Shown here piece after piece: positions 14,316-61,600 of a stretch of DNA of 64,000 nucleotides (positions within the stretch are counted from its first letter, which is position 1; each line of letters opens with the position of its first letter). The stretch lies in the NCBI GenBank assembly GCA_040219065.1, contig JAVJTD010000031.1:32236-96235 (forward strand). The letters run 5' to 3'. Made by a program: the position numbers and the translations under genes. The stretch comes from Planctomycetota bacterium. GTDB taxonomy: Bacteria; Planctomycetota; OFTM77. The notes under the pieces are model-generated. The model searched no databases and had not been told where the DNA came from. It saw only the letters and a program-made list of their open reading frames with translations.

Positions 14316-14371
14316 TACGACTGGAGGACACTCGATGCTCCCGAGTGTACCGCCATCGTCAGCCTCTCGCC

Positions 14372-14695: not shown

Positions 14696-14776
14696 GGAGT
14701 CCTACCGCAGAGGTCGCGGAGGAACGCAGAGACATGGGAGCTTGCCTAATTCCGGTGGAGCGATGGAGGGCCCGGG
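14696..14776 (+). repeat. conserved leader element copy 2 (with an 8-nt insertion)
   Basis: Aligns with 12706..12776. It supplies the SD and ATG (14763) of cassette gene A3. Confidence 0.6.
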
Positions 14777-15107: not shown

Positions 15108-15133
15108 CGAGCCCTTGAGCTGGAGCCAGCACG

Positions 15134-15424: not shown

Positions 15425-15480
15425 CGATTCAAGTCTTCCTGAGGGGTCAACCGGAGTTCGATCCTTGCACGGTGACCCAC

Positions 15481-41786: not shown

Positions 41787-44242
41787 CCTTCGATGGCGCC
41801 CTTGCTTGGACACCGCTCGTTCTTGCCCTGAAGGTCAGCCTCCTCGTCTCGGTCCTGTGGCTCCTTCACCCTTGGCTTCGCCGCAGCACCGCCCGCACCC
41901 GCGCCCTCGCGACCACGGCCACCCTCGCCGGTGCCCTCCTCGTCCCCATGACCGGTTGGCTGCCTCGCTGGGAGCTCCCCCTCGTCACGCTCGAGAGCCC
42001 GGCTCCTGACCCGCTCCCCATCGCGATACTTCCTGAGGAGGTCTTCACGGAGGGCGCCATCGAGCCGATCGGGCCACAGGTCGCGCCGCAAGTCTCGTCA
42101 GAAGGCCCTGCCTCGAGCCTCTCACTCGGCGTCGGCCTCGAGACCATCTGGTGGCTCGGCTCCAGCCTCTCACTCCTGCTCATCGCTTCGGGGCTGCTGC
42201 TCGCGACGCGTTGGAAACACCGAGCGACTCCGGTCCGCTGCCCGCTCTGGCTCGCGGACCTCGAGCGGCTGCGCCTCCGGCTGGGAGTCCGCCGGGCGGT
42301 CGACCTGCGGTCCGGCACTCACGTTCCCGGACCGCTCACGTTCGGTCACCTCCGCCCGACGATCCTCGTTCCGACTGACCATCACGAGTGGTCGCCCGAG
42401 CGCCGGGAGATCGTCCTCCTCCACGAGCTCGCTCACGTGCGTCACGGTGACTGGCTCGCCCAGCTCATCGCCCGCGCCGCCCGCGCTCTCTACTGGTTCC
42501 ACCCGCTCGTCCGACGTGCCGCTGCGCAGTGGCAAGTCGATCGCGAGCTCGCCTGCGACGCCGCCGTCGTCGCCGCCGGCATCCGACCCTCGCGCTACGC
42601 CTCCGAGCTCCTCGCGTTGGCTCAAATCGAGCCGCCGCGAGCGAACGCCCGAACACTGGGCCTGTGGATGGCCCATCCTCGAAAGCTGGAAGGAAGAATC
42701 ATGGCACTCCGACACGCAGTCGGTGCACCGCGCCGCTCGCGAGCGCTCTACTGGCTCGCCTTCACGGGTCTCTTCGCCATCGGCATCGGAACGCTCCAGC
42801 CGTGGGCGGCCGCCCAGGACGATGACCACCGCGTCGTCTGGGAAAGCGCCTCCGGTGAGCAGGTCGTCCTGGATACCTCGGACGGGAACACCGTCATCTT
42901 GATCCGCCGTGACGGGGAGGACCTGCGGCGCATCGAGCTGAAGGGAGACCCTGCCGAGATCGAAGGGGACGCGAGATACGCCATGCGCACTCGCAAGAGT
43001 GACGACGGGCACACCGTCCACGAATGGATCGTCCCCGAAGCCGACGACGGCCGAGCCGTCCGAGAGTGGCTCGTTCCCGACTCCGAGGACGGTCAGACGG
43101 TCTGGCGTTTGGCGAGGCCAAGAGCCGTTGGCGAGCAGGATCGATTCCCGTCCTCCGGCGAGGTGCAAATCGATGGAGAGACCATGCGCTACCGGAGTCG
43201 CCCGACTGAGTGGCCCTCGGGGCAAGTTCGCTCCGACCAAGAGGTCATCGAGTATCGCTCGGTTCCCCGGCCTTCGAGCCCCGACGGGTCCAACGACGTC
43301 TACTGGTACGACGACCAGTGGCGGACGATGCAAGACTCCGAGCGATACGAGGTGATCATCGAGAGCTCTGGTGAGTCGGGCCGGACCCGTCGCTACGTCG
43401 TCGACGAGAAGGGGCGCCCCGTACCCGCGCCGAAAGCCGCCCCCCGCGCTCGCCGCGCCATTCGCGACTCCGACGGGCCCTCCTCGAATGAGCCACAGCC
43501 GCGGAGCCGCGTGCGCTTCCAGGATCGCGATGAGGCCTGGCGGCCCCGTTTGCGAACGGATCTCTGGGAAGAGGCCCCGCAACCCAACCCCCAAGAGTCT
43601 CCGCGCATCGAGCGAGCCCCGCGGATAAACAGAGCTCCGCGTGTCGAAAGGGCCCCGCGTATCGAGCGTGCCCCGCGGATAAATAGAGCGCCTCGCATCG
43701 AGCGAGCCCCGCGTGTCGAGCGTGCCCCGCAGATCAATAGAGCGCCTCGCATCGAGCGAGCCCCGCGTCGTGCCCCGTCTCGCGAGGCCGTTCGGTCGTC
43801 GCAGCAGGACATGGGCATCAATAGGCGTCAGCCGAGCGCGATCCGTCGACCGGCGATCATTCCGGACACCGAGCCCGAGCCACGCGCTCTGCGCCTTCCA
43901 TCTTCTGCTCCTCGCGCCCGCTCAATCTACCGCACCCAGCCTCCGCAGCCATCACCCTCGCCTCGCCCGCAAGTCTACTTCCGTAGTCCGGCACCCTCGA
44001 TTGACACGGCTCCTGCGCCACCTCGCGTCATGCGCTTTCAAGCGCCGCCGGTCGAGACGCCCTCGGCGCCTCGGAGCCGCTACTTCCGCAACTCGGAGAC
44101 GCTTCCCGAGCCGGCTCCGGTCCAGCCCCGCGCATTGCGCCGCGGTGTGCCGGGCGCTCCTGAGCGCATTCGCGAGGATCGCCCCGAGCCGACTCCAGTA
44201 AAGCCGAAGGGCAAGATCGTTCGCGCCAACACGATGCGCTGA
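41783..44242 (+). CDS. BlaR1/MecR1-like M56 peptidase-domain membrane sensor with a long repetitive C-terminal region
   Basis: HEXXH in LLHELAHVRHGDW within a polytopic N-terminal region. The C-terminal half is low-complexity, with about 10 tandem RAPR(I/V)(E/N) hexapeptides. Confidence 0.7.
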   Translation: MTFDGALAWTPLVLALKVSLLVSVLWLLHPWLRRSTARTRALATTATLAGALLVPMTGWLPRWELPLVTLESPAPDPLPIAILPEEVFTEGAIEPIGPQVAPQVSSEGPASSLSLGVGLETIWWLGSSLSLLLIASGLLLATRWKHRATPVRCPLWLADLERLRLRLGVRRAVDLRSGTHVPGPLTFGHLRPTILVPTDHHEWSPERREIVLLHELAHVRHGDWLAQLIARAARALYWFHPLVRRAAAQWQVDRELACDAAVVAAGIRPSRYASELLALAQIEPPRANARTLGLWMAHPRKLEGRIMALRHAVGAPRRSRALYWLAFTGLFAIGIGTLQPWAAAQDDDHRVVWESASGEQVVLDTSDGNTVILIRRDGEDLRRIELKGDPAEIEGDARYAMRTRKSDDGHTVHEWIVPEADDGRAVREWLVPDSEDGQTVWRLARPRAVGEQDRFPSSGEVQIDGETMRYRSRPTEWPSGQVRSDQEVIEYRSVPRPSSPDGSNDVYWYDDQWRTMQDSERYEVIIESSGESGRTRRYVVDEKGRPVPAPKAAPRARRAIRDSDGPSSNEPQPRSRVRFQDRDEAWRPRLRTDLWEEAPQPNPQESPRIERAPRINRAPRVERAPRIERAPRINRAPRIERAPRVERAPQINRAPRIERAPRRAPSREAVRSSQQDMGINRRQPSAIRRPAIIPDTEPEPRALRLPSSAPRARSIYRTQPPQPSPSPRPQVYFRSPAPSIDTAPAPPRVMRFQAPPVETPSAPRSRYFRNSETLPEPAPVQPRALRRGVPGAPERIREDRPEPTPVKPKGKIVRANTMR
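43601..43785 (+). repeat. tandem 18-bp in-frame repeats encoding (E/N)RAPR(I/V) units
   Basis: ATCGAGCGAGCCCCGCGG-like units are reiterated about 10 times in the nucleotide sequence. Confidence 0.75.
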
Positions 44243-44340
44243 TCACCTCTTTCCACTCACCTCCGAGCGTCTGACAGAGGCGGAGCACCCGCAAGAGTGC
44301 TCCGCTTTCTCTTTGGCTCCGCTTCAACTGGGAGAGCGCA

Positions 44341-45348
44341 ATGAACTGGCTCCTCGCAATGAGCCTCACCTGGATCCCCGTCCCACAAGAACACATTCGC
44401 CACATCGACCTCTACGGACGCCGCACGGTGGAGGCTTCCGCGGTGAACGCAGCCCTCGGAGTGATGCCGGGCGTCCCGGCCGACTTCGATCGAGATGCGG
44501 CTCGCGAGCGTTTGTGCGCGATCGACGGAATCGAAGACGCCAAGCTGATCCTGATGCTGATTCCTGGGAACGAGATCTTGCTCGTCGGTTTGAAAGAGAC
44601 GGGAGCGCCCGAGGCGAGCTACCGAACCGAGCCGAGCGGAGAGGCCCGGCTGCCCGAGGACATCATTCGACTGTATGACGAGATCCAGGCCGAATCCCTG
44701 AATGGCATCCGCAAAGGCATCTCCGCCGAGGATCGAACGGATGGCTACGCGCTGTCCCGCTACGAGCCCGCTCGAAAAAGGGAGCAGGAGCTCCGCGATC
44801 GATCGCGGGCGATGGGCCCGTTGCTTCATGAAGTCCTGCGCGACTCGGGCGACGCACGGCATCGCGCCGTCGCGGCCAAGGCAATCGCGTACCTGCCCAA
44901 CAAGGCCGAGACCGTGCCTTCGCTTGCGGCTGCTATTCGAGACTCCGACGCGACCGTCCGCAACAACGCGATTCGATCGCTCATGGTCCTCGCCGATTGG
45001 GCGAACGGACGAGAGGACTTCGCGGTGGAGCTCGACTTCGCGCCCCTGATCACCCTGCTCGAGTCCTTGGAATGGACCGACCGCAACAAGGCAGCCGCCC
45101 TGCTCCATGCTTTGACCCTCTCCCGAGACTCGAAGCTATTGAGCGCCTTGAGATCCCGGTCGATTCCCGCGCTGACGGAGATGGCGCGTTGGCATTCTTC
45201 CGGACACGCCTTCACCTCCACGATGATCCTCGGCCGCCTGGCCGGCCTCGAAGACGAGCAGATCCAGAAAGAGCTGCGCGAGGTCAAGTCGGATGATACG
45301 GCGCGTCAGCGCTGGATCACCGAGCTTGCCAGACGGGCGCACGGGTAA
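44341..45348 (+). CDS. HEAT/PBS-lyase-like repeat protein
   Basis: Repeated helical units (ARHRAVAAKAIAYL, DATVRNNAIRSLMVLA, DRNKAAALLHAL). Function unknown. Confidence 0.5.
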   Translation: MNWLLAMSLTWIPVPQEHIRHIDLYGRRTVEASAVNAALGVMPGVPADFDRDAARERLCAIDGIEDAKLILMLIPGNEILLVGLKETGAPEASYRTEPSGEARLPEDIIRLYDEIQAESLNGIRKGISAEDRTDGYALSRYEPARKREQELRDRSRAMGPLLHEVLRDSGDARHRAVAAKAIAYLPNKAETVPSLAAAIRDSDATVRNNAIRSLMVLADWANGREDFAVELDFAPLITLLESLEWTDRNKAAALLHALTLSRDSKLLSALRSRSIPALTEMARWHSSGHAFTSTMILGRLAGLEDEQIQKELREVKSDDTARQRWITELARRAHG

Positions 45349-45505
45349 GCTCATTTGAAACAATGATTCCACTCGCGTTCTCGCGGCTCCCGTTCGAGAG
45401 TCGACTCAGGAGATGAAGCGCCCTAACGATGGACGCTGGCTGGGTCGACAGGACCGGTACAAGTGACCGGTTCCCGAACCGACCGGCAAGAATGGGAGAC
45501 GTTCA

Positions 45506-46308
45506 ATGATGGCGATCCAAAATACTGTTCGCCTGGCGAGCATGCTCCTCGCGATGACGGGATGGGCGGCGGCCGGCACCCTCCACGTCGATGCGAATTA
45601 CCCTGGCTGTCCGGGCACCGGGGTACCCGGAGACTCCTTCTGTCTCATTCAAGACGCGATCAATGTCGCCAGTAACGGGGACGTGATCCTCGTTCGGCCG
45701 GGCACGTACTTCGAGTCCTCGGACTATCTCGGGAAGACGATCGAGGTCCGGAGCACGCTCGGGGCCACGATGACGCGCATCCAAGGCAACCCGGGCGGCG
45801 CGGTCGTCAGCATCATCATCAGTGGCGAAGGACCCCAGACGCTCCTCCAAGGCTTCGAGATCACCGGAGGCCGCTCCGGGATCGTGATCCTGGGCAGCTC
45901 CCCGAGGATCCGACTCAACTGGATCCACGGAAACAGTCCTTCATAGGCAACCCTGTTCCGGGCGGTGCCCCCGTTTACTTCGAGGCCTCGGCTCTGGGCC
46001 AAACCGGTTGCGCTTCCGAGGTCGTCGTGAGCCTCGGCAACGGAGGATCCGGTGGGATTCTCGTCCCGGGCTCGGCCGGTCGCCGGCTGGACCTCGACGC
46101 CGATGTCGTCGCAGGCATTTGGCTGGGCCTTCCCCAACCCGTGCGTCGCGCAACGCTATCGGGCTGCATGCCCGCCTCGACGAGCGCGTTCGCGATCCCG
46201 GCGAGCGTGCCGGTCGGGGTGACGATTCACTACGCCGGCTTCAGTTGGGATCCGTTCACCACGACCATCTACTCCCTGTCGGAGACGCGCGCGATCACGA
46301 CACGCTGA
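45506..46308 (+). pseudogene. possible frameshifted right-handed beta-helix (pectate-lyase-like) secreted protein
   Basis: ORF 45506..45946 has a signal peptide and beta-helix N-terminus and stops abruptly. A plausible continuation (GNGGSGGILVPGSAG...) is in another frame at 46027..46308. Confidence 0.3.
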
Positions 46309-46366
46309 GAATGACGGCCGGCTCGAGAGATCGCTCTCCCGAGCCGGCCGCCTTCCGTTCGAGGAT

Positions 46367-47680
46367 CTAGTTCTCGAAGACGACGTTCGTGACGATGGCC
46401 TGGCCGATGCAACGGCCCTGATCCACGCCCAGCTCGCAAGCGGGCCGATAATGGATACCGCCATAGAGCCTCGAGATGGCCGCCTCGTTCGCGGCTTGCT
46501 CGAAGGACACGTAGGTCTCGGGATCGAAGCCGCGGTCGACGTGCGTGTCATCCTCGAAAGGGAGGAACGCCCCGAACTGATCGGTCAGCACGGTCGACGC
46601 GGCGCCCGATTGCACCGAGTGCCCGGAGGTGTATTCGGGGAACGGCGGCGTACCGACCGGAGACACCCAGGCGCCATCGATGAAGTTCTGAATGTAGGTG
46701 ACCGGACGCAGCAGGTTGATGTCGTACTTCGAGTACCAGCACGCGACGAACGCGTCATGGACCGCGAGACCGACGCGTGCGTAAGCTTCCGCAGCGACGG
46801 CAAGCGAATAGTCGTACTGCGTGACGACGTCGTCGACGATCGCCATCCAATGCCCCGGCGGCGTACCGGTCTGGCCCGGATTGTCCGCCCAATATTCGGC
46901 GATCAACATTTGCTCCGGCGTCGCATTGTTGACGGTCTCGTACACCTCGAGCGAGTCCTGATAGAAGCGAGACGACGGCGACTCGGAGTACAGGCTGGGG
47001 ATGGGAGCCTCGCAGGCATTGGCCGCGCCGAGCACGAAGGTTCGGATCTGTCCCCAGCACGGCTGGAGGGCCGGCGCGAATGCGGGTGGCGTGGGCTCCC
47101 AGAGGCCCGGTCCGACGGGCGGCGTATAGTCACAGTTGTTGAACTCGTCGTAACCGTCGGTGGCCGCCCAGGCGAGGATCGCGTCGCCGAGGGCGCGGCC
47201 GTACTCCCGGGACCGATCCGCGACACCCGCATCGACGTCGTCACGGTCGGACTCGATCTGCGTCTCGAGCGCAGCGATGGAGTCCGACGAAGTGGCCGGG
47301 AAGAGACCCGAGAGGATGCGAGCCAGAGCCGCGTTGGCGACCAGCTCCCATTGGTAGGTCTGACCGTCCTCGGGACGCGGAAGCGACGTCAGCTCGTTGA
47401 GCTGCCCGACCAGCGAGCGATGCTTGGGCATTCCTGCAACGACGGCTTCGTAGAGCCCCACGCCTGCGTAGCCGAAGATGCGCGCCGCGACCGGAGGCGT
47501 GAGCCCCTCTTCGCGAACACGATCGTACTGAAGGTTGCCCCAAGCCGTGGCCACGACTCCGTTATACTCGCTGGTACGCGTGGAGCTGGCCGGAACGAAG
47601 GAGCTCGAAGACGAGCCCGAGCACGCTTGGAAGAGAACAACAGCCAGGACGAGCCCGGCGAGTCGGATGCTGCGATGCAT
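46367..47680 (-). CDS. PAP2-superfamily / vanadium-haloperoxidase-like lipoprotein
   Basis: Lipobox VLFQACSGS. PAP2 motifs KYDINLLRP, PEYTSGHS and SRLYGGIHYR. Confidence 0.65.
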   Translation of the reverse strand: MHRSIRLAGLVLAVVLFQACSGSSSSSFVPASSTRTSEYNGVVATAWGNLQYDRVREEGLTPPVAARIFGYAGVGLYEAVVAGMPKHRSLVGQLNELTSLPRPEDGQTYQWELVANAALARILSGLFPATSSDSIAALETQIESDRDDVDAGVADRSREYGRALGDAILAWAATDGYDEFNNCDYTPPVGPGLWEPTPPAFAPALQPCWGQIRTFVLGAANACEAPIPSLYSESPSSRFYQDSLEVYETVNNATPEQMLIAEYWADNPGQTGTPPGHWMAIVDDVVTQYDYSLAVAAEAYARVGLAVHDAFVACWYSKYDINLLRPVTYIQNFIDGAWVSPVGTPPFPEYTSGHSVQSGAASTVLTDQFGAFLPFEDDTHVDRGFDPETYVSFEQAANEAAISRLYGGIHYRPACELGVDQGRCIGQAIVTNVVFEN

Positions 47681-47942
47681 GTGTGAGTGATCCTCGAATA
47701 ACTGGAGACCTTTTCGCCGGGCACACGCCTAGGGGGGACGGCTGGTGTTTCCTGGACCCGGCCGGACGGCAAGCAGCGCCCGGTGGCAACCGACACCTCA
47801 AACGGAGGACCATTCGCTCGAGCGCGTGTAAGTCGAAGAAAACCGAAGGGTGAGAGGCGGCCCGCTCGCAAGAGTCACGACCGGTGTCGTTCCCGCCATG
47901 AGCCGAGGAGCACTTCCAGACTGAGGAATCGGGAGTCGAACT

Positions 47943-48545
47943 TCAGCCGCCATCTTGGGCGAGTCGCCCCTCCAAACGCCGCTTCGCCTCTGGCCACTCG
48001 TCGTCGAGGAGGCTGTAGTAGACGGTGTCTCGCATGCGGCCTCTCTCAGTGAGCATGTGCTTTCGGAGGATGCCTTCCTCTTTCGCACCCAGCCGCTGGA
48101 TGGCGCGGCGAGACTTGTCATTGAGGGCGTCGGTCTTGAGCTCGACGCGGGTGCAGCCGAGCACTTCGATGGCATGAGTGAGCATCAGGAGCTTGGCCTC
48201 GGTGTTCACCGCGGTGCGTTGCCAAGGCGGCGCGATCCAGGTCCAGCCGATCTCGACGCGGCGATGCTCGAGGGCGATCGCCCCGAATCGCGTGGAGCCG
48301 ACGACCTGGCCGGTCTCTGTGAGAGTCGTCGCGAACGGCAAGGCACTGCCAGCGGCGCGGCTCCGCAAGGCTTCAGCGACATAGGCCTGCATGTCCTCGC
48401 GCGTTCGCAGGGTCTTGCCCGTCCAGCGCCAGATCTCGGGATCACTCCCGACCTCCCACAAGGCGTCCACATGACCTTCGGTCAATGGCACCAGGGTCAC
48501 GATCCGGCCGGCGAGGGTGACGGGCTCTGGGGTGGTCCCTTTCAT
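47943..48545 (-). CDS. GNAT-family N-acetyltransferase (RimJ/RimL-like)
   Basis: EIGWTWIAPPWQRTAVNTEAKLLMLTHAIEVLGCTRVELKTDALNDKSRRAIQRLGA. Confidence 0.7.
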   Translation of the reverse strand: MKGTTPEPVTLAGRIVTLVPLTEGHVDALWEVGSDPEIWRWTGKTLRTREDMQAYVAEALRSRAAGSALPFATTLTETGQVVGSTRFGAIALEHRRVEIGWTWIAPPWQRTAVNTEAKLLMLTHAIEVLGCTRVELKTDALNDKSRRAIQRLGAKEEGILRKHMLTERGRMRDTVYYSLLDDEWPEAKRRLEGRLAQDGG

Positions 48546-48595
48546 GTCAACAGCGCCCCCGGCGCGGCTGGTGGTGAAACGTGCTCGATTGCATC

Positions 48596-48815
48596 GGAGT
48601 GCCCAAGCCGAGCGAGCCGGTGACCGCGTCCGAGCGAGCTTGGGCCCGGGCGCACCGAGCCGGCAAGAAGTGCATTCCGAATGGCCCCTCGCTCGGCACC
48701 TTTCCGCTCGATCGGTGGCACCGTCGAGGAAGCCGCTCCCAGCTCGGTGACTGCTACCCGTTTCGGTCGTGCGGGCTCTGGTTTCGTTCGCGCGGGATTT
48801 GGTCTCATCTCAGCT
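48596..48815. repeat. about 240-nt repeated intergenic element, copy 2
   Basis: Aligns block-wise with 25559..25800 in the same orientation. Its 3' end abuts or overlaps the decarboxylase stop. Confidence 0.6.
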
Positions 48816-50312
48816 CTTCTCCTGCTCGAGCTCGGTCGCGATCCGATCTCCGGTCTCTTCGAGGGCGTCTGTGAACACGTCGAAGTCCTCGAGCCGGCTC
48901 CGGTGATTGCAGATGCAGATACGGATCGTGAACCGGCCGTGCAGCTTCGTCGACGACGGAATTGCGAGACCACTCTCCTGGATCCTCATCAGCAGCTCCA
49001 GGTTGATCGCATCCGATCGCTCGCCGTCGAGATTCCCCGGATCGTAACGGAACGCCACGACGTTCAGCCCCACTGGCGCCACTCGCCGCAGCTTCCTTGA
49101 TCGATCGACGCGGTCCGCGAAGTACCTCGCCTGACGCGAGTTCTGGGTGACGATTCGGCCCAGCGTCTCGAAGCCCTGCTCCTTGATGAGGAGCCACACC
49201 TTGAGCGCCTTGAACGCACGCGAGAGCTGAAGCCCCCGCTCGTGGGCGACCTCCGACCAGGCCCCCGTGCCGCGCGTGAGTATTTGAAGATAGTTGGCAT
49301 CGGTCGCAAATGAGTGGACGTGCGCGGCGCGATCGCGTATCAGCACGCAGCCCGCCTCGTAGGGGATGTTCATCCACTTGTGGAAATCGAAGGCCAAGGA
49401 ATCGGCCCGCTCCATCCCCGAGACCGCGTCCTTCAGCTCGGGCGAGAGCGCGGCCATCGCACCGAAGGCCCCGTCGACATGCAGCCAGAGGCGCTCTGAC
49501 CTGGCGTGGTCGGCGAGGGCGTTCAGGTCGTCGACGGCACCGGTGTTGATGGTGCCGGCATTGCCGACGATGGCCACCGGGCGCATTCCCGCCGCTCGGT
49601 CCGCGGCCAGGCGATCCCTCAGATCCCGAAGGTCGATCCGAAACTGCTCGTCGACCGCGATCCACCGCAAGGCCTCTCGCCCCATCCCCAGCATTCGCAC
49701 GGCCTTCATCACGGACGAGTGCGTCTCCCTCGAGGCGTAGACCGTCAAGAGGCCCGGCTCGGCGCCGATCCCGTGCTCGGCGACGTCGTAACCGGCCATC
49801 TGATCGCGCGCGCAGGTCAGCCCCACGAGGTTCGCGACCGACCCGCCGCTCGTCAACGTGCCCGAGACCTCCGCGGGGAAGCCAAAGGCATCCTTCATCC
49901 AATCGACGACCTGACGGTCGACCCGAGAAGAAGCGTCATTGAAGTGGCCGGTCATCGCGTTGAGCCCGCCCGAGAGCATCTCGGCGACGAGCGTGAGCGG
50001 CGTGCCGGCGCCTCCGGCCCAACCCCAGAATCGCGGATGGCGATTGCCGGTCGGGTAAGGCCACACCCATTCGAGAAAGTCCTCGTAAGCGGCTTCGGCG
50101 CCCTGGCCTTTCATCGGCCGCTCGGTGCGGAGCGCCGCCTCGACGCTCTTCGGAATCGGCCGCCAGGCCGGTTGGTCCCGAACGAATTGCTGCCCGTCGA
50201 TCATCTGGTCGAGGGCCCGATGGGCGAGGGCTCGGAAGGCATCCCAGTCCTTCGGGTCGAGATCGACCTCGTCACAGGACGGCTCAGGGACTCGGGGCGG
50301 AAGGATCGACAT
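48810..50312 (-). CDS. group II pyridoxal-dependent decarboxylase (aromatic amino acid / diaminobutyrate decarboxylase family)
   Basis: PLP-lysine region SLAFDFHKWMNIPYEAGCV and N-terminal DDC-type domain. The start is set at MSILPP, rejecting the 42-aa upstream extension. Confidence 0.8.
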   Translation of the reverse strand: MSILPPRVPEPSCDEVDLDPKDWDAFRALAHRALDQMIDGQQFVRDQPAWRPIPKSVEAALRTERPMKGQGAEAAYEDFLEWVWPYPTGNRHPRFWGWAGGAGTPLTLVAEMLSGGLNAMTGHFNDASSRVDRQVVDWMKDAFGFPAEVSGTLTSGGSVANLVGLTCARDQMAGYDVAEHGIGAEPGLLTVYASRETHSSVMKAVRMLGMGREALRWIAVDEQFRIDLRDLRDRLAADRAAGMRPVAIVGNAGTINTGAVDDLNALADHARSERLWLHVDGAFGAMAALSPELKDAVSGMERADSLAFDFHKWMNIPYEAGCVLIRDRAAHVHSFATDANYLQILTRGTGAWSEVAHERGLQLSRAFKALKVWLLIKEQGFETLGRIVTQNSRQARYFADRVDRSRKLRRVAPVGLNVVAFRYDPGNLDGERSDAINLELLMRIQESGLAIPSSTKLHGRFTIRICICNHRSRLEDFDVFTDALEETGDRIATELEQEKS

Positions 50313-50437
50313 GGGAAAGCTCCTGGCGAGGCTCGATTGAGTTGCTACAATCCGAGCGATTGAGAGAGGTCGGAAGTGATCAATGCCACTTCTATCGCTT
50401 GATCTCACGCCGTCAACAGAAACATTGGATCGATACA

Positions 50438-51832
50438 ATGTGGACCCCTGATCTCGAATCCTCTGCTGGACCTCGGTACCTCGCCTTGGCCGATGCCATC
50501 GCCCGCGACATCGCCTCCGGTACGCTTCGCCACGGTGAGCGGCTGCCGACCCACCGAGAGCTCGCCGACCGGCTGGGTATCACCGTCGGCACCGTGACCC
50601 GCGGCTTCGCCGAGGCCGAGCGCCGAGGTCTGACCGTCGGTGAGGTCGGACGAGGTACCTTCGTTCGCGAGGCCGAGGAGAGCATCGCCTGGTTCGGGTC
50701 CGACGAGTCCCGGCGCGAGGGCTTGCTGGAGATGAGCCTGGCAATGCCCTGGCGGCTAGAGGGCGGCGCCGAAGATCGGGCGCTCGCCGAGTCCCTGGCG
50801 ACATTGTCTCGGTGCCGGGATCTCGGACGGCTGCTCCAATACGACCCGGATACCGCGAATCTCGAGCAACGGCGCCGGGCCAGCGAGTGGCTGCGTGGGA
50901 TGCAGGTGCCGGCGAGCCCAGAGAGCCTGATCGTGACGAGCGGCGTGCAGCACGGATTGACCGTCCTCCTCTGCACCATTCTCCGCCCCGGCGACACGCT
51001 CCTGGCCGAAGAGGTGACCTACCCGGCGGTGAAGTCCTTGTCCCAAGCACTGGGCCTGTCGATCCGAGGCGTTGCGATGGACGAGGGCGGGATGATTCCG
51101 GATGCGCTGGATCGGGCCTGCCGCGAGGGCTCTCCGCGTGCGGTCTACCTGATGCCCAACCTGCAGAACCCGACCGGGATCCGCCTCGGCGAGGAGCGTC
51201 GCGAAGCGATCGCCGACATCGCGCGCGAGCATGGTATTTGGATCATCGAGGACGAGGTGCATCGCACGGCCGCGGGTCCGAAGGAAGTGCCGATCGCGGC
51301 CCGCGCGCCGGAGCGGACGTTTCACCTGACCAGCCTCTCGAAGTCGGTCGCCTTCGGCCTGCGAGTCGGGTTCCTCGTCGCGCCCGAGTCGATGGTCGAT
51401 CGCCTGCGCGCCGGTGTGCGCACGACGCTCTGGATGCCGCCGCCGCTGATGGTCGAGATCGCGACGCGCTGGCTGGCCGACGGAACGGCCCTGTCGCTCG
51501 GCGAGCGGCGGGATGAGGAGATGGCGGCGCGGCACGAGATTCTCAGGCGAGAGCTGGGAGAGATCGCGAGCACACCCACAGGTGAGCCGTCGATCTACGT
51601 GTGGATGCGCCTCCCCGAGCCCTGGCGCGGCGAGGAGTTCGTCGCACAGGCGAAGCAGCGAGGCGTCCGGCTGGCCGGCTCCGAGACGTTCGCGGTCGGC
51701 CAAAGGAACGTGCCCCACGCCGTGCGCATCAGCGTCTCGTCGATCGAGAAGCGCGACGACTTCGAGCGCGCCGTCTCGGTCATCGCCGAGCTACTCCAAG
51801 GCCGCGCCGACGCCTGCCTCGACATCGTGTGA
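50438..51832 (+). CDS. MocR/GabR-family regulator (GntR wHTH fused to aminotransferase-like domain)
   Basis: GERLPTHRELADRLGITVGTVTRGF wHTH followed by a class I aminotransferase fold with the PLP-lysine region SLSKSV. It lies divergent from the decarboxylase. Confidence 0.8.
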   Translation: MWTPDLESSAGPRYLALADAIARDIASGTLRHGERLPTHRELADRLGITVGTVTRGFAEAERRGLTVGEVGRGTFVREAEESIAWFGSDESRREGLLEMSLAMPWRLEGGAEDRALAESLATLSRCRDLGRLLQYDPDTANLEQRRRASEWLRGMQVPASPESLIVTSGVQHGLTVLLCTILRPGDTLLAEEVTYPAVKSLSQALGLSIRGVAMDEGGMIPDALDRACREGSPRAVYLMPNLQNPTGIRLGEERREAIADIAREHGIWIIEDEVHRTAAGPKEVPIAARAPERTFHLTSLSKSVAFGLRVGFLVAPESMVDRLRAGVRTTLWMPPPLMVEIATRWLADGTALSLGERRDEEMAARHEILRRELGEIASTPTGEPSIYVWMRLPEPWRGEEFVAQAKQRGVRLAGSETFAVGQRNVPHAVRISVSSIEKRDDFERAVSVIAELLQGRADACLDIV

Positions 51833-51834
51833 GT

Positions 51835-52135
51835 TGGCAATCCGTTCCCGGCACAAATGGCCCACTTTGGCGATCGAGCGCCTGCAATGTTGGCAATCCG
51901 TTCCCGGCACAAATGGCCCACTTTGGCGATCGAGCGCCACCATTGCCCCTGCCTGACCACTTGGCATTTGCGAGAACAAAGGCACCAAGGACCCTCCTCG
52001 ATGTCCCACTCTGTCCAGCAAAGTGGGCCATTCGTGCCGGGAACAAAGTGCTCACTTTAAAAAGTGGGCCATTCGTGCCGGGAACAAAGTGCTCACTTTC
52101 AAAAGTGGGCCATTCGTGCCGGGAACAGAGTGCTC
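51835..52135. repeat. intergenic repeat array: 2 direct 50-nt units plus 3 inverted 41-nt units sharing a roughly 25-nt core
   Basis: GTTGGCAATCCGTTCCCGGCACAAATGGCCCACTTTGGCGATCGAGCGCC twice (51835..51884 and 51891..51940), then AAAGTGGGCCATTCGTGCCGGGAACAAAGTGCTCACTTT three times (52019..52135). The cores are reverse complements. Confidence 0.8.
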
Positions 52136-55100
52136 ACTCGCCGCCGGTGGCGCCTAGCTCGTGAAGGGCGACGTAGTCGAGGCCGAACATGTAGGCCTTC
52201 ACGGCGTCGGGGTGCGCGCCGGTGATCTCGACCACCAGGCGGTGCTCGCCTTCAGTCAGCTCGATCCCCTTGAAGGTCAGGACGCCAGTCGTGATGACAT
52301 CGGGGTCGTTGTACAGATCGATCGGGCCGCCTAGCCTTTGATCGTCGATCGCGAGCTGCACGATGCCGTAATCGCGCGCCCGCGTCATGACCAGGTCGAC
52401 GTCGTACGTGCCGCTCTTCGAGACGGGCACCGCCAGCTCGAGACGATCGCCCGGCTTCGCGCCCGTCCACCACAGATGATCGGCATGGCTCCACTTGTCG
52501 GCCGGGAACCCACCCATCGCCTGGCTCGTGGCCTTGCCCGCCGACTTCGAAAGCACCTTCATCGACTCGCCTTCGATCGCTCCCTTCACGATGCCCGTCT
52601 TCGGGTCGATCGGTGACCGCGCGCCTCGGACGGGCACTTGGACGGGCCTGCGGAGGTAGGCGACCAGGTCAACGACGTCGCGGTCGGAGAGGGGCTCGAG
52701 CAATCCTTCGGGCATGACCGAGATGTTCTGGAGCTGCCGATCCTCGATCTCGCTCTTCGGCACGACGACGGTGTCATTGAGCGTTCGCAGCGTCAACGCG
52801 CTGTCGGTCTCCTTGCGGAGCAAGCCCGAGACGATGCGGCCGTCCTCCAGCCAAGCGACGGTCGAGCGATAGTCATTGCCGAGCACCGCGCTCGGATCGA
52901 ACACGTTCTCGAGCAGGTAATCGAGGTCCGAGCGGTTCGAGCCCGTGATGTCGGGGCCGACGTCCTCGCCCTCCCCGAACAGCATGTGGCAAGTCGAGCA
53001 TGTCTCCTGGAAGAGCATCCGGCCGTGGCTCGGATCGGCGTCCTTCGCCTTCGCGACCAGCGCCTTCACCCGCTCGATGCCCGCCTTCTTCTCCTCCGAC
53101 GTCTCACGCACCTCGCCCCAGACCTTCGTGATGCGCTGATCGAGCTTCGCGTCGTTGAAGCTGCGGAGCTGACGCACATGATAGGCATGCAGATCACGGC
53201 TCGGGATCGTGCCCGCCTGAACAGCATCCAGCAGTGCGCCCGCATAGGCCGGGCGAGTCGTCAGGGCCGAGATCGCGTCGCGCTTTTCCGTCTGCGAGAG
53301 ATTGGCGTAATTGTCCAAGATCGCCTGCGGCGTCCCTGGATCCGACAATTGCGCGAGCGCCTTGAGCGCCGAGCCCCGCAATTGCCCGTTCCCCAGCACC
53401 TGCTGGAACGCCTTCGCCGCCTCGGGATCGCGCGCCTGCACCAGGAACTCGAGCGCCTGCTGACGCTTCTTCATGCCGGCCGACGCATCGGTCAAGACCG
53501 AGCGCAACCGCGGCAGGATCCTCTTGTCGCCGAAGGCGATCGCCACCTGATCGGCACGGTCCCGCACTTCGGCATCGGGATTGGCGAGGAGCGCCGCATA
53601 CGCCTTCTCCCAAGCTGGCGGCATCTCGAGATCCGCTCGTCCTTCGAACGCTTGCAGCATCTCGCCGAGGATCATCTTCCGCCGCGCATCATCCTTAGCC
53701 TCACCGAGGATCGCGACCACCGCATCGATCGCCCTGGGATCGGCTGCCGCCCGGCGAGTGATGAAGCGCGTCAGCAAAGGAATCTCGGAGCGCGTCGCCA
53801 GGCGCATCGCCCGGGCCGTGTCCTTCAAGACCAAAGGCTCGATGCCGTACCAGATCATCAGGGGAAGGTTGTGGTCCTCGGCGTCCTCGCCGTGCCCCGA
53901 CAGTGCCTCCGCGATCGTCCACCGCTGCTCGAGCGGCAAGCGCTGCAGCGCGCTGGTCAGCGCCAAGCGCACGACGGGAGAAGCGTCCTGAGCGGCCATC
54001 TTCTCGAGCTGCGCGAGGCCCTTCTCGTCGATTGTCCGATCCTCGAGATCGAGCTGGATCGCCCAAGCCCGCACGTCGGGCTCTGTGTCACCCCGCAGCT
54101 TTGCAAAGTCGCCGGCCGTCAGCTTCCCGATCGTATGCAGCGTCCAGATGGCCCGCAGTCTCAGCGGTACCGCGTTCGACGCATCGGCGATCTTCCAGAG
54201 CGCCGCCACGACCTCACCCGACAAGTTGCCCTGAGCCGCGCGCTGCTGCAGCTCCTTACGGCTCATGCGCGCGTGCCACTCGTTGGTGTGCTTCTGCAGC
54301 TCGGCGAGGGCGATGTCGTCCATCTTGGCGAGGTCGACCCTGCGCCTTTTCACGTCGCCATAGGTGACGTTGTAGACGCGCCCATTGGAGCGATCCCAGA
54401 TCTCGGGCGAGTTCCGGTGGCAGGCGTTCTTGTCGTACCAGTCGATCAGGTACACGCTGCCATCGGGTCCCGCTCGCAGGTTGATGCCGCGGAACCAGTG
54501 GTCATTGGCCATGAGGAAGTCCGGCGAATGCGTGCCGACGTAGCCGGATCCTTCGGGCACGAGCGCATCGCAGTTGATGCGATTGCCATGGATGTTCGAG
54601 AAGTAGAGCTGATTGCGATACTTCTCCGGCCAATTGTCGCCGAGGTAGATCATGGCGCCGCAATGCGCGTGACCACCGCCCGCGTCCGAGGTATTGGTCG
54701 GAATGCTTTCGGGCTCCTGCCCCCACCACGCGTGGTCGCCGATGTTGCCGGCGTAGTGTGCGTGATCGGCGATCGTCTTGATGTCGTCGAAGACGTACTG
54801 GTTGAAGTGCGTGCCGCCCTGCCTCTGATACCGCGCGCCTTGGATCACGTGGAAGAGGTGCGGAATCACGCAGGCCGTGATGAAGGCGTGCCCGCGGTCG
54901 TTGAAGTCGACGCCCCACGGATTGCTCGAGCCCCAGGCGAAGACCTCGAACTCATGTTTGATGGGATGATAACGCCACACTGCGGCATTCATCGGCGTGC
55001 GATCGGCGTCCTTCGTGCCCGGCTTACCCACCTTCGAATGCGTGAACACCCCGTGGCAGCCGTACAGCCAGCCGTCGGGGCCCCAATTGAACGCGTTCAG

Positions 55101-56768
55101 CGTCTCGTGCGTGTCCTGGTACCCGAAGCCGTCGAGTAGGATCTGCGGCTCACCATCGGGACGGTCATCGCCGTCGGCGTCGGGAATGAACAGGAAGTAC
55201 GGCGCCGCGCCGACCCAAACACCGCCGAACCCGACCTCGAGCCCGCTGACCAGGTTGAGGCCCTCGATGAAGACCTTCCTCTGATCGAGAGCGCCATCAC
55301 CGGTCGTGTCCTCGAGGATCACGATCTTGTCGCGCCCTTTTCCTTCCGGCGCGCGCTGCGGATAGGTGTACGCCTCGGCGACCCAGACACGGCCTTTGCC
55401 GTCGATCGCCATCGCGATCGGCTGATGCACCTGCGGCTCGCCCGCCGCCAGCTTCACGTCGAAGCCCGCCGGCACGGTCATGTGCGCCGCGGCTTCTTCG
55501 GGCAAGAGGCCCGATCGCATCTCGGCCGGCACCTTGGGCTGCGCGTCCTGCCACTCCTCGGCGCTGACCTTCTTCCGCGTATGCGTGATGACGTGGCAGC
55601 CCTTCATCCCGCCCAAGATGATGTCCGGCTGTCCGTTCCCCGTCACGTCGGCGACGTTGACCTGTCGCCCGATGCCCGAGTCGTCGTCCGCCTGATACGG
55701 GATCCACTGCACACCCGCCTCGCCGCGCACCAGCTTGAACCAGTACACGACCGCGCCGGCGTCCCACATCGGGCTCTGCTCGTGGTGGGACCAATACGTC
55801 TTGCCCGTGACGATGTCCTTCAGGCCGTCACCGTCCATGTCGGCGAGGGCGACGCTGTGCAGCTCGGTGAAGAGGACGCCGTAGGGATTGTCCTCGGGCT
55901 TCCAGCCCATGATGACGTGCCGCTCGAAGTCGGTGCCGTCGCCCTTGTTCTCGAACCAGGCCAGCCCGTACTCGTGCGCCTCGAGGCTGGTGATGACGTC
56001 CTGGTCGCCGTCCCCGTCGACATCGTAGGCGTACATCTCCGCGCCGCCCTTGGGCGCGAACACGTACTGGTGCAGCGTCCACATCGGGTCGCCGTCCAGG
56101 CTCTTCGGCTGCTCGAACCAGCCGTGCTGCATCAGGACGTCGTGGCGCCCGTCCCCATTGACATCGCCCACGCCCAGCCCGTGCCCGAACTGCCTCGCCG
56201 CAATCGGCTCCGACAAGGGATGGAACGTCCAACGCTCGAACGGCTGCTTCGGATCCCAGGTCGCGTAGCCGAACCGACCGCCGCGCGTGCACACCAGCTC
56301 CGGCCGCTCGTCGCCGGCGATCTGCGTGAAGTGCGGCGACTCGTTCGAGACCGAGTTGAACACCTCGTGCTTCGGCCAGTGCTCGCCCTGCCCGTCCTTC
56401 CCCGGGTTCTCGTACACGTACGCCGGCTTCGACGGGAAGCCCACCACGAAGACGTCTCGCCAGCCATCCCCGTCGAAGTCGTACACCCACGCGAAGAAGT
56501 TATCGGCGTAGGCGTGGACGTTCTGCGCGACGGGCTCGTAGATCTCGTGAGCCGTCTTCCAGTCGGGCCCCTCGTACCAGTACGGCCCGTAGACGACATC
56601 GACGTGCCCGTCGTTGTTCAAATCTCCATAGCCGGCCCCTTCGGAGAAGTAGGTCCCGGTGAGCTCATGTCTCTCGAACTCGTGGAGGAAGTGGTCGTCG
56701 TCAGCGAAGCCCAGAGGAGACAGAACGGCGGCGAAGGACAGGCCGAGGAGAGTGCGAGTGATCAACAC
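52134..56768 (-). CDS. giant secreted multidomain protein: FG-GAP repeats, SGL-like beta-propeller dehydrogenase-like region, HEAT repeats, c-type cytochrome module, C-terminal beta domain
   Basis: Signal peptide, DxDGDG repeats, a GFGYQDTHETLNAFNWGPDGWLYGCHG propeller region, a HEAT-like ARM array, CSTCH heme-binding motif with downstream Met, and a C-terminal beta-sandwich-like domain. Confidence 0.7.
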   Translation of the reverse strand: MLITRTLLGLSFAAVLSPLGFADDDHFLHEFERHELTGTYFSEGAGYGDLNNDGHVDVVYGPYWYEGPDWKTAHEIYEPVAQNVHAYADNFFAWVYDFDGDGWRDVFVVGFPSKPAYVYENPGKDGQGEHWPKHEVFNSVSNESPHFTQIAGDERPELVCTRGGRFGYATWDPKQPFERWTFHPLSEPIAARQFGHGLGVGDVNGDGRHDVLMQHGWFEQPKSLDGDPMWTLHQYVFAPKGGAEMYAYDVDGDGDQDVITSLEAHEYGLAWFENKGDGTDFERHVIMGWKPEDNPYGVLFTELHSVALADMDGDGLKDIVTGKTYWSHHEQSPMWDAGAVVYWFKLVRGEAGVQWIPYQADDDSGIGRQVNVADVTGNGQPDIILGGMKGCHVITHTRKKVSAEEWQDAQPKVPAEMRSGLLPEEAAAHMTVPAGFDVKLAAGEPQVHQPIAMAIDGKGRVWVAEAYTYPQRAPEGKGRDKIVILEDTTGDGALDQRKVFIEGLNLVSGLEVGFGGVWVGAAPYFLFIPDADGDDRPDGEPQILLDGFGYQDTHETLNAFNWGPDGWLYGCHGVFTHSKVGKPGTKDADRTPMNAAVWRYHPIKHEFEVFAWGSSNPWGVDFNDRGHAFITACVIPHLFHVIQGARYQRQGGTHFNQYVFDDIKTIADHAHYAGNIGDHAWWGQEPESIPTNTSDAGGGHAHCGAMIYLGDNWPEKYRNQLYFSNIHGNRINCDALVPEGSGYVGTHSPDFLMANDHWFRGINLRAGPDGSVYLIDWYDKNACHRNSPEIWDRSNGRVYNVTYGDVKRRRVDLAKMDDIALAELQKHTNEWHARMSRKELQQRAAQGNLSGEVVAALWKIADASNAVPLRLRAIWTLHTIGKLTAGDFAKLRGDTEPDVRAWAIQLDLEDRTIDEKGLAQLEKMAAQDASPVVRLALTSALQRLPLEQRWTIAEALSGHGEDAEDHNLPLMIWYGIEPLVLKDTARAMRLATRSEIPLLTRFITRRAAADPRAIDAVVAILGEAKDDARRKMILGEMLQAFEGRADLEMPPAWEKAYAALLANPDAEVRDRADQVAIAFGDKRILPRLRSVLTDASAGMKKRQQALEFLVQARDPEAAKAFQQVLGNGQLRGSALKALAQLSDPGTPQAILDNYANLSQTEKRDAISALTTRPAYAGALLDAVQAGTIPSRDLHAYHVRQLRSFNDAKLDQRITKVWGEVRETSEEKKAGIERVKALVAKAKDADPSHGRMLFQETCSTCHMLFGEGEDVGPDITGSNRSDLDYLLENVFDPSAVLGNDYRSTVAWLEDGRIVSGLLRKETDSALTLRTLNDTVVVPKSEIEDRQLQNISVMPEGLLEPLSDRDVVDLVAYLRRPVQVPVRGARSPIDPKTGIVKGAIEGESMKVLSKSAGKATSQAMGGFPADKWSHADHLWWTGAKPGDRLELAVPVSKSGTYDVDLVMTRARDYGIVQLAIDDQRLGGPIDLYNDPDVITTGVLTFKGIELTEGEHRLVVEITGAHPDAVKAYMFGLDYVALHELGATGGE

Positions 56769-56984
56769 GATAGGGCTCTTCCTGGAGAAATGGGCCGGGC
56801 TGGAAGTGGGGCGAGCTTCGTGCCGCTCAGGCTACGGCAGACGGCTGGAAGGGGCAAGCCTGGAGGGAGGGTTGGGCGCCAGGAGTGCCTGAGCCGAATG
56901 AGCCTGTGGCCGCGAATCGAAGCCGACGCCACCGAGCGAGCGAGCTGTCCGACTGCCGGAGCTGCTCGAGGATCTTCAGATTGA

Positions 56985-58627: not shown

Positions 58628-61600
58628 TCACTGCTCACTGTCCTTCGGTGACGCGGCTTCGAGTAGGGTTTGGAGTTGGCCGACGTGGTTGCGGATGGTC
58701 GAGAGTCTCTTTGACCGGGTGGATTGGAGGATGTCGTTCACGGCTTTTTGGATAATCTCCTTCGCGGCGCTTTGCTGGGCGTCATCGAGGGTGATTTGGC
58801 CGCCTTGCAGCTTCAGTGCTTGGATGAGGGCTTCGAGTGATTCGCGCTCTTCTCGGAGGCTCTCGAGCTCGGTCTCGAGCCTCTCGAGGTCGGCACGGAG
58901 GGAGGCATCGCTGAGCTTCTCGACTTCCGCTTCTTGCTCGTGGATGTTCCCTTCGGCGGCAGTCACTTGTCCCTTCGCCTGTTCGAGACTCTCCTCCGCC
59001 GCCTCGATTGCCTGACGCCGGTCCTCGATGTCCTCGTTCAACGCCTCGAGATCCGCTTCTCTCTCCTGCAGCTCAGCGGTCACCTCATTCAGCTCTTGCT
59101 CGAGGGCCGCTCGCTCCTCTTCGTCCTCTGTCTCGGCGATCTGGTTCGTCAGCTCTCCTTGGCGCTGCCTCAATGCCGTGATCGCTTCCGCGAGGGGGTC
59201 GACCTTGCTCTCCTCTTCCAACAATTGAGTGCGGAGATCCGACAAGGCAGCTTCATGCCTCGTGACCTCCGTCTCCTTCTTGGCCTTCTCGTCCTGGAGC
59301 CCCTTCAGCGCGTCGCGGGCATCCTTCTGCCTAGCTTCTTGATCTTGCTCGAGCTGCTCCCTGTTCGACTCGATCGCCTCCTCGTGCTCAGCGATATCAC
59401 CTTCGACCTGCTCGAGGGTGGGTCCTGAAGCAAAGTCGTCTCCGGCCTCGTTCAGCTCATGATCGAGGGCGTCCTTCTCGGACAGGAAGTCGTAGGCGGC
59501 GTTCTTCACGACCGGCTCCGAGATGGCCCGGACGTACGCTTCGCCGCGACTCTTCAGCTCCTCCAATGCGGCTCGGAGCTTCTCGGGTGCCTCCTCGGCA
59601 GAGATCTCCTCGGGCAACGCCGTCACTTCGGCGGTGTCCAGTGCAGTCCGAAGCCAGGCCAAGTTGTCCGTCCTCTCGGCGGGTGTGTCGCCCAGCCGCT
59701 CGTCCTCGCGAAGCTTTGTGAGCAGCTCGGCTTCGAGCTTCGAGGCCTCCTCGCGAAGAGCGTCGTACGCTTGCTTTGCCGCCTTCTCGGACGTCGACCG
59801 CTCGTTCTTCAGCAAGGTCTGCATGAGCTGAACGTCTTCGACCTGATTCGACTGGAGCTCCGGCATCGGGTCGCCGGGCTGCATGGCGAGGATCTTCTGC
59901 GCGTCGACCAGCGCCACGGGACTGATCGAGCCAGCCGCAGCGAACATCGCCAGGTTCTTGGCGGTCTCGATGATCTTCTCGGTCGTGGCCTTGTAGCTCT
60001 TGACGTACCAGTTGCCGATGTCGTCCTTGACGACGACGTAGCTCGAGCTGCCGGGACCGCCCAGTTTGACCGTATTCACGGTCTGCCAGAACTGCTCGTC
60101 GATGTCCTCGAGTGTCCGAGCCTTCGCCTCGACCTCGGGATCCGGAATGCGCCCGCTGTGTGCCTGGGCCTCACCGATCGGCCGCAGGCCGACGCGGTCC
60201 CTGGGAGACTGATCCGATTCGTCGGCGCCGGTCGTGACGTAACTGTTACGCAAGAAGGCGACCGCAGGTCGGACGAAGATCATTCCGCTGCGCTCGGCGT
60301 AAGCGACATCGAGCGCCTCTCGGTACTTCTTGGCCTCCTGGGAGTCCTGCCCCTCTCTCTCGACGCAGCGGATGAACTCGTGCCGCAGGCGCGCAATGAC
60401 TGCGTCCATCACCTGACGTGGACTCTCGAAAGTCGGCTCACCTGCTTTGTCTACCTGATCGCAAACAAGGCACTTACAAGCCTGGTCCTGTCCGCTCCAC
60501 TCGAGGCGCGCCCGCTCCTTCTGCTGCTCGGCGAATCGATCGCTCGCCGCGATCGCATCCACCTGACTGAGGATCGAGTTCGCCACCGCGGACAGCACGT
60601 CGCTGTTCTTGGTCAGGATCTGGTCGGCGCTCTCATAGTCCTTCCACTCGTAGAGCAATGATTGGAAGCCGGCCAAGAAGCGCAGCTTCTCGGCGAAGCG
60701 CACCAACCCATCGAGCAAGCGCCGCTTCTCATTCAGGCTGGTCGGGTTGCCTGGAGACTCGTAGGCCGCATCGACATAGTTCTCGATCAGGGACTCGAGG
60801 CCGATGAGCAGACGACCACCGTCGAGACCTTGAAGTGCTGTGACGCTTCGATCCAGCTCTCGAAACGCTTCCTCCGAGAAACGGGAGGTGATTCGCTGCG
60901 CCTCTTCATCGTCGACGCTGGCCGGACCGATGACGGTACCGTACTGACGACGCGCTGCCCTCAGAGCCTCTGAGTCGCGCTTCGAGTATCCCTCGATCCG
61001 CTCGCTATCGAGGTACTCGTCATACTCCGACCTCATACCTTCCGGAAGGGCCAAGCCGTTCCGAAAGGCCTCGTCGATCACCAGGAGCCAGGTGCTGACA
61101 CGAACAGGAGCCTTCTCGAGCTCGAGCTCCATGTCATCGAAATAGGCGCGATACGTCGACTCCAGATCCTGCGCTCCCGGCGAGCCTTTTCCCTCGTCAG
61201 GGGCTGGCTCGCTCGTCTTGCCTGAGTCCTGGCGAGTATTCTGCACTTTCTGAAGCTGGTCGCTGACACGCCGGATGGCATCGGGCTGGTTGGCTTCCGT
61301 CTGACCGTCCGATGCAACGAGTCGAAGACTTTCGGGGAGGTTGCTGTTGTGAGCCGCAGCCCAGAGCAAGTCGGGCGAGGCCAGACGAGCGACCGCGCGC
61401 CGTGCCGCAAATCGCAATGCGGGTGCCTGAGGAATGTCGAGATCGGAATCCGTGGCGAGGAATAGTGCGGCGCTTCTCCAGACTTCGGCGAGGTCGGAGC
61501 GCGACTCACCGAAGGCCGCACTGATGGCCTCGACCCTGCTGACGAACCTCTCGGCGAGCGATCTCTGCCGGCCTTTCGGCTCGGCGAACAACAATCGGGC

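Follow-up and report, generated by a model that had tools for sequence, protein, structure and literature searches.

The window, by which we mean the whole stretch of 64,000 nucleotides of DNA that was analysed, carries a repeat element between the 3′ ends of a plus-strand gene for a MocR-type regulator and a minus-strand gene for a protein of 1544 amino acids, so that the convergence of the flanking genes, on which the preliminary description of this locus was built, is confirmed. Both proteins are 100% identical to NCBI MAG proteins (P0121 for the MocR protein and P0001 for the 1544-aa protein), and these two lie on one 127-kb contig of a MAG labelled Planctomycetota bacterium. The 1544-aa protein, named "PVC-type heme-binding CxxCH" in the sources, has more than 1500 homologues in Planctomycetota. 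The features of the locus are as follows, with L and R denoting the repeat units of the left and right arrays.

50438-51832, plus strand: gene for a MocR-type regulator, 464 aa, with the Pfam domains GntR HTH and Aminotran_1_2 (aminotransferase fold)
51833-51888, plus strand: unit L1, 56 nt, with its core GTTCCCGGCACAAATGGCCCACTTT at 51844-51868 and a short dyad, GGCGATCGAGCGCC, after the core
51889-51944, plus strand: unit L2, 56 nt, with its core at 51900-51924
51945-52019, no strand: unique middle of 75 nt, the loop of the predicted long hairpin, with no repeat family over it
51973-52003, minus strand: terminator-like hairpin of 9 pairs with a loop of 3 and the tail CCTTTGTTCT, a pattern match from a consensus scan only
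52020-52060, minus strand: unit R1, 41 nt, with its core GTTCCCGGCACGAATGGCCCACTTT at 52020-52044 and the tail AAAGTGCTCACTTT
52061-52101, minus strand: unit R2, 41 nt, 40/41 identical to R1, with its core at 52061-52085
52102-52138, minus strand: unit R3, the last and partly diverged copy, with its core at 52102-52126
52134-56768, minus strand: gene for the 1544-aa protein, with the Pfam domains FG-GAP, DUF7133, HEAT and cytochrome c

Both genes appear to end where their families end. The C-terminus of the MocR protein (..CLDIV*) aligns with the family end (..CVDIL*), which identifies its TGA (51830-51832) as the native stop codon, and the 1544-aa protein carries a tail of 9 residues beyond the conserved GLDYVxL motif, where members of its family have 2-15. 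The stop codon of the latter gene (TCA on the plus strand, 52134-52136) lies inside R3, as had been claimed for the last copy of the repeat, and its position is conserved in R1 and R2 too (GTGCTCACT). Since L1 starts at the very next base after the MocR stop and R3 holds the opposite stop, the element is the whole spacer; the 301 nt of convergent spacer are wholly occupied by it, and there is no ordinary intergenic DNA at either side. The reading frames that follow both TGA codons stay open, a feature that brought selenocysteine insertion or read-through recoding into consideration, and the element is open in two frames.

Anatomy and divergence of the repeat units

The element measures about 306 bp in total (51833-52138), and direct reading, a repeat finder and TRF are concordant on its anatomy, in which two direct L units face three tandem R units, the five-copy array of mixed orientation that had been reported. 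Common to all five units is a 25-nt core, GTTCCCGGCAC[A/G]AATGGCCCACTTT, which stands on the plus strand in the L units and on the minus strand in the R units (at 52020, 52061 and 52102), in agreement with the reverse-complemented core of roughly 25 nt first noticed in the right units. Five matches to the core with at most one mismatch are found, compared with none in 100 dinucleotide-preserving shuffles, and on these grounds the anatomy given in the preliminary description is correct, with one adjustment: the "two direct 50-nt units" on the left are indeed identical over their first 50 nt, but their last 6 nt differ and the period is 56 nt (TRF, 1.9 copies at 51833-51938, 100% matches). The gap of "about 80 nt" holds as 81 nt when counted from the end of the identical left part to the R array, and the three 41-nt units on the right were recovered as a period of 41 nt in 2.9 copies (52020-52138, 97% matches), the divergence of R3 being located at the outer end of the unit. 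The longest inverted arms pair 51831-51879 with 52091-52139, over 49 nt and with 80% complementarity. In composition the element has a lower G+C (0.57) than the intergenic DNA of the window (0.63; whole window 65%), and 10 of the 17 AAAGTG hexamers of the window fall within it.

When the five units are aligned in one orientation, the L and R cores are identical at 24 of 25 positions, compared with 15 of 30 positions in the flanks (15 nt on each side; Fisher p = 0.0002 for core vs flanks), and only one position of the core varies, both L units having A there and all three R units G. Near-identity within each array, drift of the flanks between L and R and the split between A and G together suggest that the arms diverged first and that amplification is recent. 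In the simplest history, the element would thus have begun as a single inverted repeat with arms of about 50 nt each and a 25-nt core that was strictly kept; the arms would then have diverged, and tandem duplication would later have expanded them independently of each other, the left twofold (56-nt unit) and the right threefold (41-nt unit). The sharp boundary between core and flanks would mean either that only the core is truly homologous or that the core has been held by selection or gene conversion, and the identity of 96% in the core vs 50% in the flanks is at least as compatible with sequence-specific recognition by a protein as with a structural role. An origin of the element from the ancestral 3′ flank was also considered and rejected, the downstream region of the nearest relative being not similar to it (143 of 300 shuffles reach the score).

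Predicted folding and the ends of transcripts

RNA covering 331 nt across the element is predicted to fold with -167.1 kcal/mol on the plus strand and -181.2 kcal/mol on the minus strand, with z-scores for the whole-region fold of -10.6 and -10.7, respectively, and no shuffle out of 100 as good. The long imperfect hairpin suggested for transcripts from either side is therefore strongly predicted on both strands, with a length of about 300 nt. In the predicted pairing L1 joins with R3 and L2 with R2, leaving R1 outside the long arms, and at the variable core base plus-strand RNA has an A·C mismatch and minus-strand RNA a G·U pair; with regard to covariation, the fold is predicted from one sequence only. 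The component parts behave differently from the whole. The R unit alone offers a 9-bp outer stem (AAAGTGGGC/GCTCACTTT) with a z-score of -0.3 as DNA and -1.3 as RNA, the L units alone score +0.6 to +1.2, and single units are thus not significantly structured compared with shuffles. As RNA the left array alone scores +0.9 and -0.7, the right array alone -3.6 and -2.3, and the unique middle +0.6 and -0.8, the last being not unusually structured.

The preliminary description proposed that these repeats could be a bidirectional terminator, an idea that has to be divided. Beyond the long L:R hairpin there is no U-tract, the next bases being AAAAGUGGG on the plus strand and AUUGCAGG on the minus strand, and it is therefore not a canonical intrinsic terminator in either direction; it is also an order of magnitude larger than the stem of a Rho-independent terminator, which it resembles in following right after the stop codons. 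What does stand is a separate site on the minus strand, in the unique middle, where the small hairpin (stem 52003->51983, tail CCUUUGUUCU) lies 3′ of the 1544-aa gene, past the three R units, and with its U-rich tail fits the consensus of Rho-independent terminators. In a 20-kb scan this hairpin had the longest stem, with 9 pairs vs 5-6 for the rest; terminator-like sites as a class were not enriched in that scan (6 found vs 10.3 in shuffles). On this model the transcript of the 1544-aa gene probably crosses R3 to R1 and ends in the unique middle, and the MocR transcript, which lacks a separate terminator, would fold into the L:R duplex just before continuing in antisense into the 1544-aa gene.

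Occurrence elsewhere and the surrounding block

Searches for other copies were extensive and returned no second locus. Within the 64-kb window none was found by a scan allowing 3 mismatches, by blastn-short or by an nhmmer profile of the five units. A 24-mer of the core had no match in 596 Gb of species-representative genomes, a collection to which the source genome does not belong, and a 19-mer had 10 single matches in JGI metagenomes and 18 in genomes, the flanks of which are unlike the repeat units and mark them as chance matches. A sequence from Bythopirellula (L031, the same sequence as L010/L012) agrees with the core at 23 of 25 positions and, judged from the sequence, probably does so in a coding stretch. 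The core had no match in IMG/VR, and blastn against PLSDB plasmids and GenBank phages likewise gave none. Since the element is open in two frames, mis-called ORFs lying over other copies were sought in protein collections by means of the read-through frame, in which five of the six reading frames of the core are represented; no match turned up among 5.8 billion proteins, and HMMER on 1.84 billion representatives returned one spurious chance match, a repeat protein. Rfam 15 gave only sub-threshold noise from miRNA models in the element and no family at gathering score, the only gathering-level match of the window being a tRNA-Pro at 10062. A genome-wide search for the core had been recommended in the preliminary description, which regarded uniqueness to this locus, combined with read-through transcription, as speaking against its interpretation. 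The search as run covered the window and the public collections, where the core occurs only at this locus, and the uniqueness therefore holds in all accessible data, the source genome lying outside these. Taken at sequence level, these results indicate that the element is a real, lineage-private composite inverted repeat and is neither a gene nor a known RNA.

The nearest relative (L001, GCA_029260795.1; 78% amino acid identity) places the element in a wider setting. DNA homology with this relative reaches the final sense codon (GAG) of the 1544-aa gene and goes no further. In both sequences the 1544-aa gene is followed in the same order by genes for a BlaR1-like M56 peptidase, BlaI, a sigma-factor-like protein and CheR/CheB; however, comparison of the window at about 43100-52134 with positions 5176-7650 of the relative reveals an extra block of about 8-9 kb between the 1544-aa gene and the M56 gene (about 44.2-52.1 kb), which is absent from the relative. 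The genes of this block encode a HEAT protein, a 146-aa ORF, PAP2, a GNAT acetyltransferase, a PLP-dependent decarboxylase and the MocR regulator. On three distant contigs (L016, L017 and L019) decarboxylase, MocR and GNAT genes are again found together as a trio, which suggests horizontal acquisition, and the best MocR homologues are only about 54% identical, the few that are named by the sources being from Gemmatimonadota MAGs. With the block absent in the relative, and the trio and the homologues found at a distance, the repeat sits exactly at one junction of a lineage-specific block that was probably acquired. The other junction of the block (about 44.24-44.34 kb) holds no copy of the core. 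Other tandem repeats occur in connection with these genes. On the distant contig L017 (3947-4044), a tandem array likewise comes after the MocR homologue; it consists of 5.8 copies of a 17-nt unit (TGAGCCACCCATGGATC), spans from the stop codon of the homologue to the start of the next gene and is unrelated in sequence to the repeat of the window. In the C-terminal half of the M56 ORF (41783-44242), an 18-nt tandem repeat (43583-43785; super-period of 54 nt, about 9 copies) would translate into a peptide repeat of 6 residues, and the M56 protein of the relative aligns only over its residues 156-464.

The adjacent MocR regulator was a natural candidate for binding the units, either as operator or as decoy, and this was rejected, its own upstream region resembling the units no more than expected by chance (a score attained by 127 of 500 shuffles). 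Homologues of this regulator (L016-L019) share the upstream box GATTGTAyCGGTACATTGTACCCC, of which GATTGTAyCGGTACATTGTA is absent from the element. Instead of the box of the homologues, the divergent spacer between MocR and the decarboxylase (50313-50437) contains CGATTGAG..TACAATCCGAGCGATTGAG and the inverted motif GGAAGTG-N8-CACTTC; such upstream sequences are likely the operator sites of this MocR family. A literature search linking MocR with AAAGTG gave unrelated matches only.

Comparison with known elements and possible roles

Among known bacterial repeats, the REP/BIME family has been defined by units that are imperfect palindromes of 20-40 bp with a stem-loop of their own and that carry the tetranucleotide GTAG or CGTC terminally (PMC3733652). 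Its copies are numerous and dispersed in extragenic DNA, and a RAYT (Y1/IS200-like) transposase gene is associated with them. Like REP, BIME and REPIN sequences, the present units are short (~25-40 nt), extragenic, clustered in both orientations and located between convergent gene ends, and like a REPIN the cluster is able to fold into a long hairpin; the roles proposed for REP/BIME, namely attenuation of transcription and protection of mRNA 3′ ends, are those proposed here as well. However, the core here has no dyad symmetry or palindrome and its single units lack significant structure, none of GTAG, CTAC, CGTC and GACG occurs anywhere in 51833-52138, the units form two facing blocks of direct repeats in place of alternating orientations, and neither a second locus nor a RAYT gene was found in what was searched. 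The REP/BIME-like identity offered in the preliminary description consequently does not stand beyond a likeness of architecture, there being no palindrome, no tag and no further copy in the searched data.

MITEs, including the BOX element of pneumococci, a modular MITE of the form boxA-(boxB)n-boxC, offer another comparison. The element resembles them in being about 300 bp long and non-coding, and in having terminal inverted arms, an internal module amplified in tandem, a stable predicted fold and a place in an intergenic spacer, and in terminal inverted repeats, small size and lack of coding capacity it agrees with what is expected of a MITE. It differs from MITEs in its single known copy, in having neither a target-site duplication nor a cognate transposase, and in its ends, which coincide with two native stop codons and leave zero residual spacer. 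At any boundary that respects the native gene ends, no direct repeat is shared by the flanks ..CATCGTG(TGA) and (TCA)CTCGCCGCC; the only candidate for a target duplication, TCG, would make the conserved final Val codon of MocR a part of the element, and this is contradicted by the family alignment. Because the neighbouring 8 kb or so is also absent in the relative, no clean empty site is available there. The ends of Tn7, Mu and Tn402 carry several direct sites of about 20-25 bp each, inverted between the two ends, and the present arrays resemble them in their asymmetry, with the sites set apart at one end and closely packed at the other, and in their outermost bases, TGAG...CTCA. Unlike those ends, the terminal TGA and TCA here are the stop codons of the flanking genes, that of MocR being at its family-native position, the two "ends" are only 75 nt apart, and a 5-bp duplication of the Tn7/Mu/Tn402 type is lacking (5-bp flanks TCGTG and CTCGC). 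Several further kinds of element were rejected: a Ter fork trap, as the cumulative GC skew falls nearly monotonically from about 0 to -0.67 in the window with no turn at 52 kb; an integron attC, as the R″/R′ core sites are in the wrong order; a CRISPR, as the "spacers" are identical; and a type III toxin-antitoxin locus, as no small toxin gene is adjacent.

REP/BIME and MITE hairpins are reported to act as barriers at 3′ ends. Our preferred reading, held tentatively and with a probability of roughly 0.4, is that the element is a lineage-private structured intergenic repeat, in the broad sense of REPIN, BIME or MITE, whose arms were amplified in place and whose hairpin acts as such a barrier. 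Its anatomy, predicted fold and order of duplication are read from the sequence, and its function is one that we infer. In a transcript from either side, the L and R arms would pair into one long imperfect hairpin, located just ahead of the point at which the polymerase would run antisense into the opposing gene, and this hairpin might serve as a transcriptional insulator, as a block to 3′-exonucleases or as a target of RNase III, the minus-strand gene having in addition the ordinary small hairpin with its U-rich tail in the middle. In favour of a barrier, two other convergent spacers in the window also carry repeats, although of a different family. Against it, some 190-300 nt of read-through would be needed before the arms can pair, and neither the single units nor the left array by itself exceed shuffles in stability. 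Should the hairpin indeed insulate the two genes, it would be one more repeat-derived 3′-end element, now in the little-studied Planctomycetota. By marking the exact junction of the inserted regulator, decarboxylase and acetyltransferase block, the element may record how this block joined the chromosome. Its history of tandem amplification, arm by arm, is clear in the sequence and would hold nothing surprising for a specialist in bacterial repeats; in practice it advises caution in the assembly of MAGs, for it breaks de Bruijn contigs, and it is a candidate for 3′-end mapping.

It is possible, yet rather doubtful, that the element is instead a non-autonomous mobile element of MITE- or REPIN-like type, with further copies in the source genome, in which the core would be the site of a transposase and any effect on transcription incidental. 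The terminal inverted arms, small non-coding body, reduced G+C and a core far better conserved than its flanks are all consistent with mobility, as are the position at the exact edge of a block of about 8 kb missing from the nearest relative and the presence in this genome of other dispersed intergenic repeats, one family of which (family B) has 3-4 copies in 64 kb. Mobility nevertheless predicts further copies, and the window yielded no second locus even by profile search, with only chance single matches in representative genomes, JGI metagenomes, IMG/VR, plasmids and phages; the want of a target-site duplication weighs in the same direction, and the 38 window ORFs scanned contained no Y1_Tnp/RAYT, transposase, integrase, recombinase, rve/DDE or AAA+ transposition protein. 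The conservation of an asymmetric 25-bp core at 24 of 25 positions in both orientations, next to flanks that have drifted, could also mean that a sequence-specific protein, be it a regulator, a nucleoid protein or a roadblock, binds the array and that this protein and not the RNA fold is what functions. The spacing of the R units (41 bp, or 3.9 helical turns, nearly in phase) and the concentration of AAAGTG in the element point the same way. We consider such a binding-site array, which the preliminary description had also offered as an identity, improbable, however, because the L units with their spacing of 56 bp (5.3 turns) would be out of phase, a place between two 3′ ends is unusual for operators, and the only adjacent regulator, MocR, is not supported as the binder by either the shuffles or the box of its homologues. 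It would be something of a long shot that the core is the site of a dedicated protein in a more novel setting, either a transposon in miniature that represents a new family and has arrays of transposase-binding sites as its ends, or a protein roadblock or invertible switch that controls collision between the two convergent transcription units; by analogy with Tn7, Mu and Tn402, the transposon version would have two spaced sites facing three packed ones, so far in this planctomycete lineage only.

Two other explanations are very improbable in our estimation. An invertible segment, comparable to an inverton or shufflon, would let a recombinase flip the DNA between the opposed cores and thereby, for example, reorient the terminator-like site in the middle. 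The opposed cores do bracket a short unique segment with such a strand-specific site, and the break of an independent Logan contig in the L1 core, about 3 nt before our own estimate for k=31, might be read in this light; but no recombinase gene is present in the window, no sequence in the alternative orientation was seen, and the stop codon precedes the first core, so that inversion could change neither protein. The same contig bears on the explanation that the array, or its copy numbers, is a product of mis-assembly. The source is a short-read MAG, from which the copy numbers of 2 + 3 are taken, and de Bruijn assemblers have difficulty with tandem units of 41 and 56 nt. The Logan contig (L015, SRR26147846, 3.1 kb) carries the MocR gene at 100% identity and, at 3071-3100, the end of MocR and the first 27 nt of L1 exactly, after which it breaks inside the L1 core. 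This break falls about 3 nt short of the graph break that we would expect, assuming k=31, and such an early end could stem from heterogeneity among strains or from the repeat being poorly covered. As the independent assembly matches the junction, the repeat is not an artefact of one assembler, and the element moreover lies inside the 127-kb contig between complete genes with native ends and shows differences between its arms at fixed positions, which chimeric joins would not produce.

Family B is an unrelated dispersed intergenic repeat of about 240 nt, with copies at 25559-25795 and 48596-48802 on the plus strand and 5190-5275 on the minus strand and a partial copy at 56882-56916; the copies are 80-90% identical, and each has two 21-nt tandem units (GTTTCGGTCGCGCGGGCTCTG) at its end. 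Two of them stand in convergent spacers, and their RNA fold is no better than that of shuffles (z about 0). As a relative of the element family B was rejected, since it has at most 10-12 nt in common with the element and is unstructured. On the minus strand at 58628-63001, an ORF of 1457 aa has a coding-like codon-position G+C and no Pfam domain at E <= 1e-5. At the other end of the window, the tRNA-Pro(TGG) at 10062-10139 is followed by a stretch of lower G+C (12000-16000; 0.59-0.61 vs 0.65) with few convincing ORFs and a direct pair of 64-nt repeats (12716-12779 and 14715-14778, 92% identical), which may be the remnant of an integrated element.
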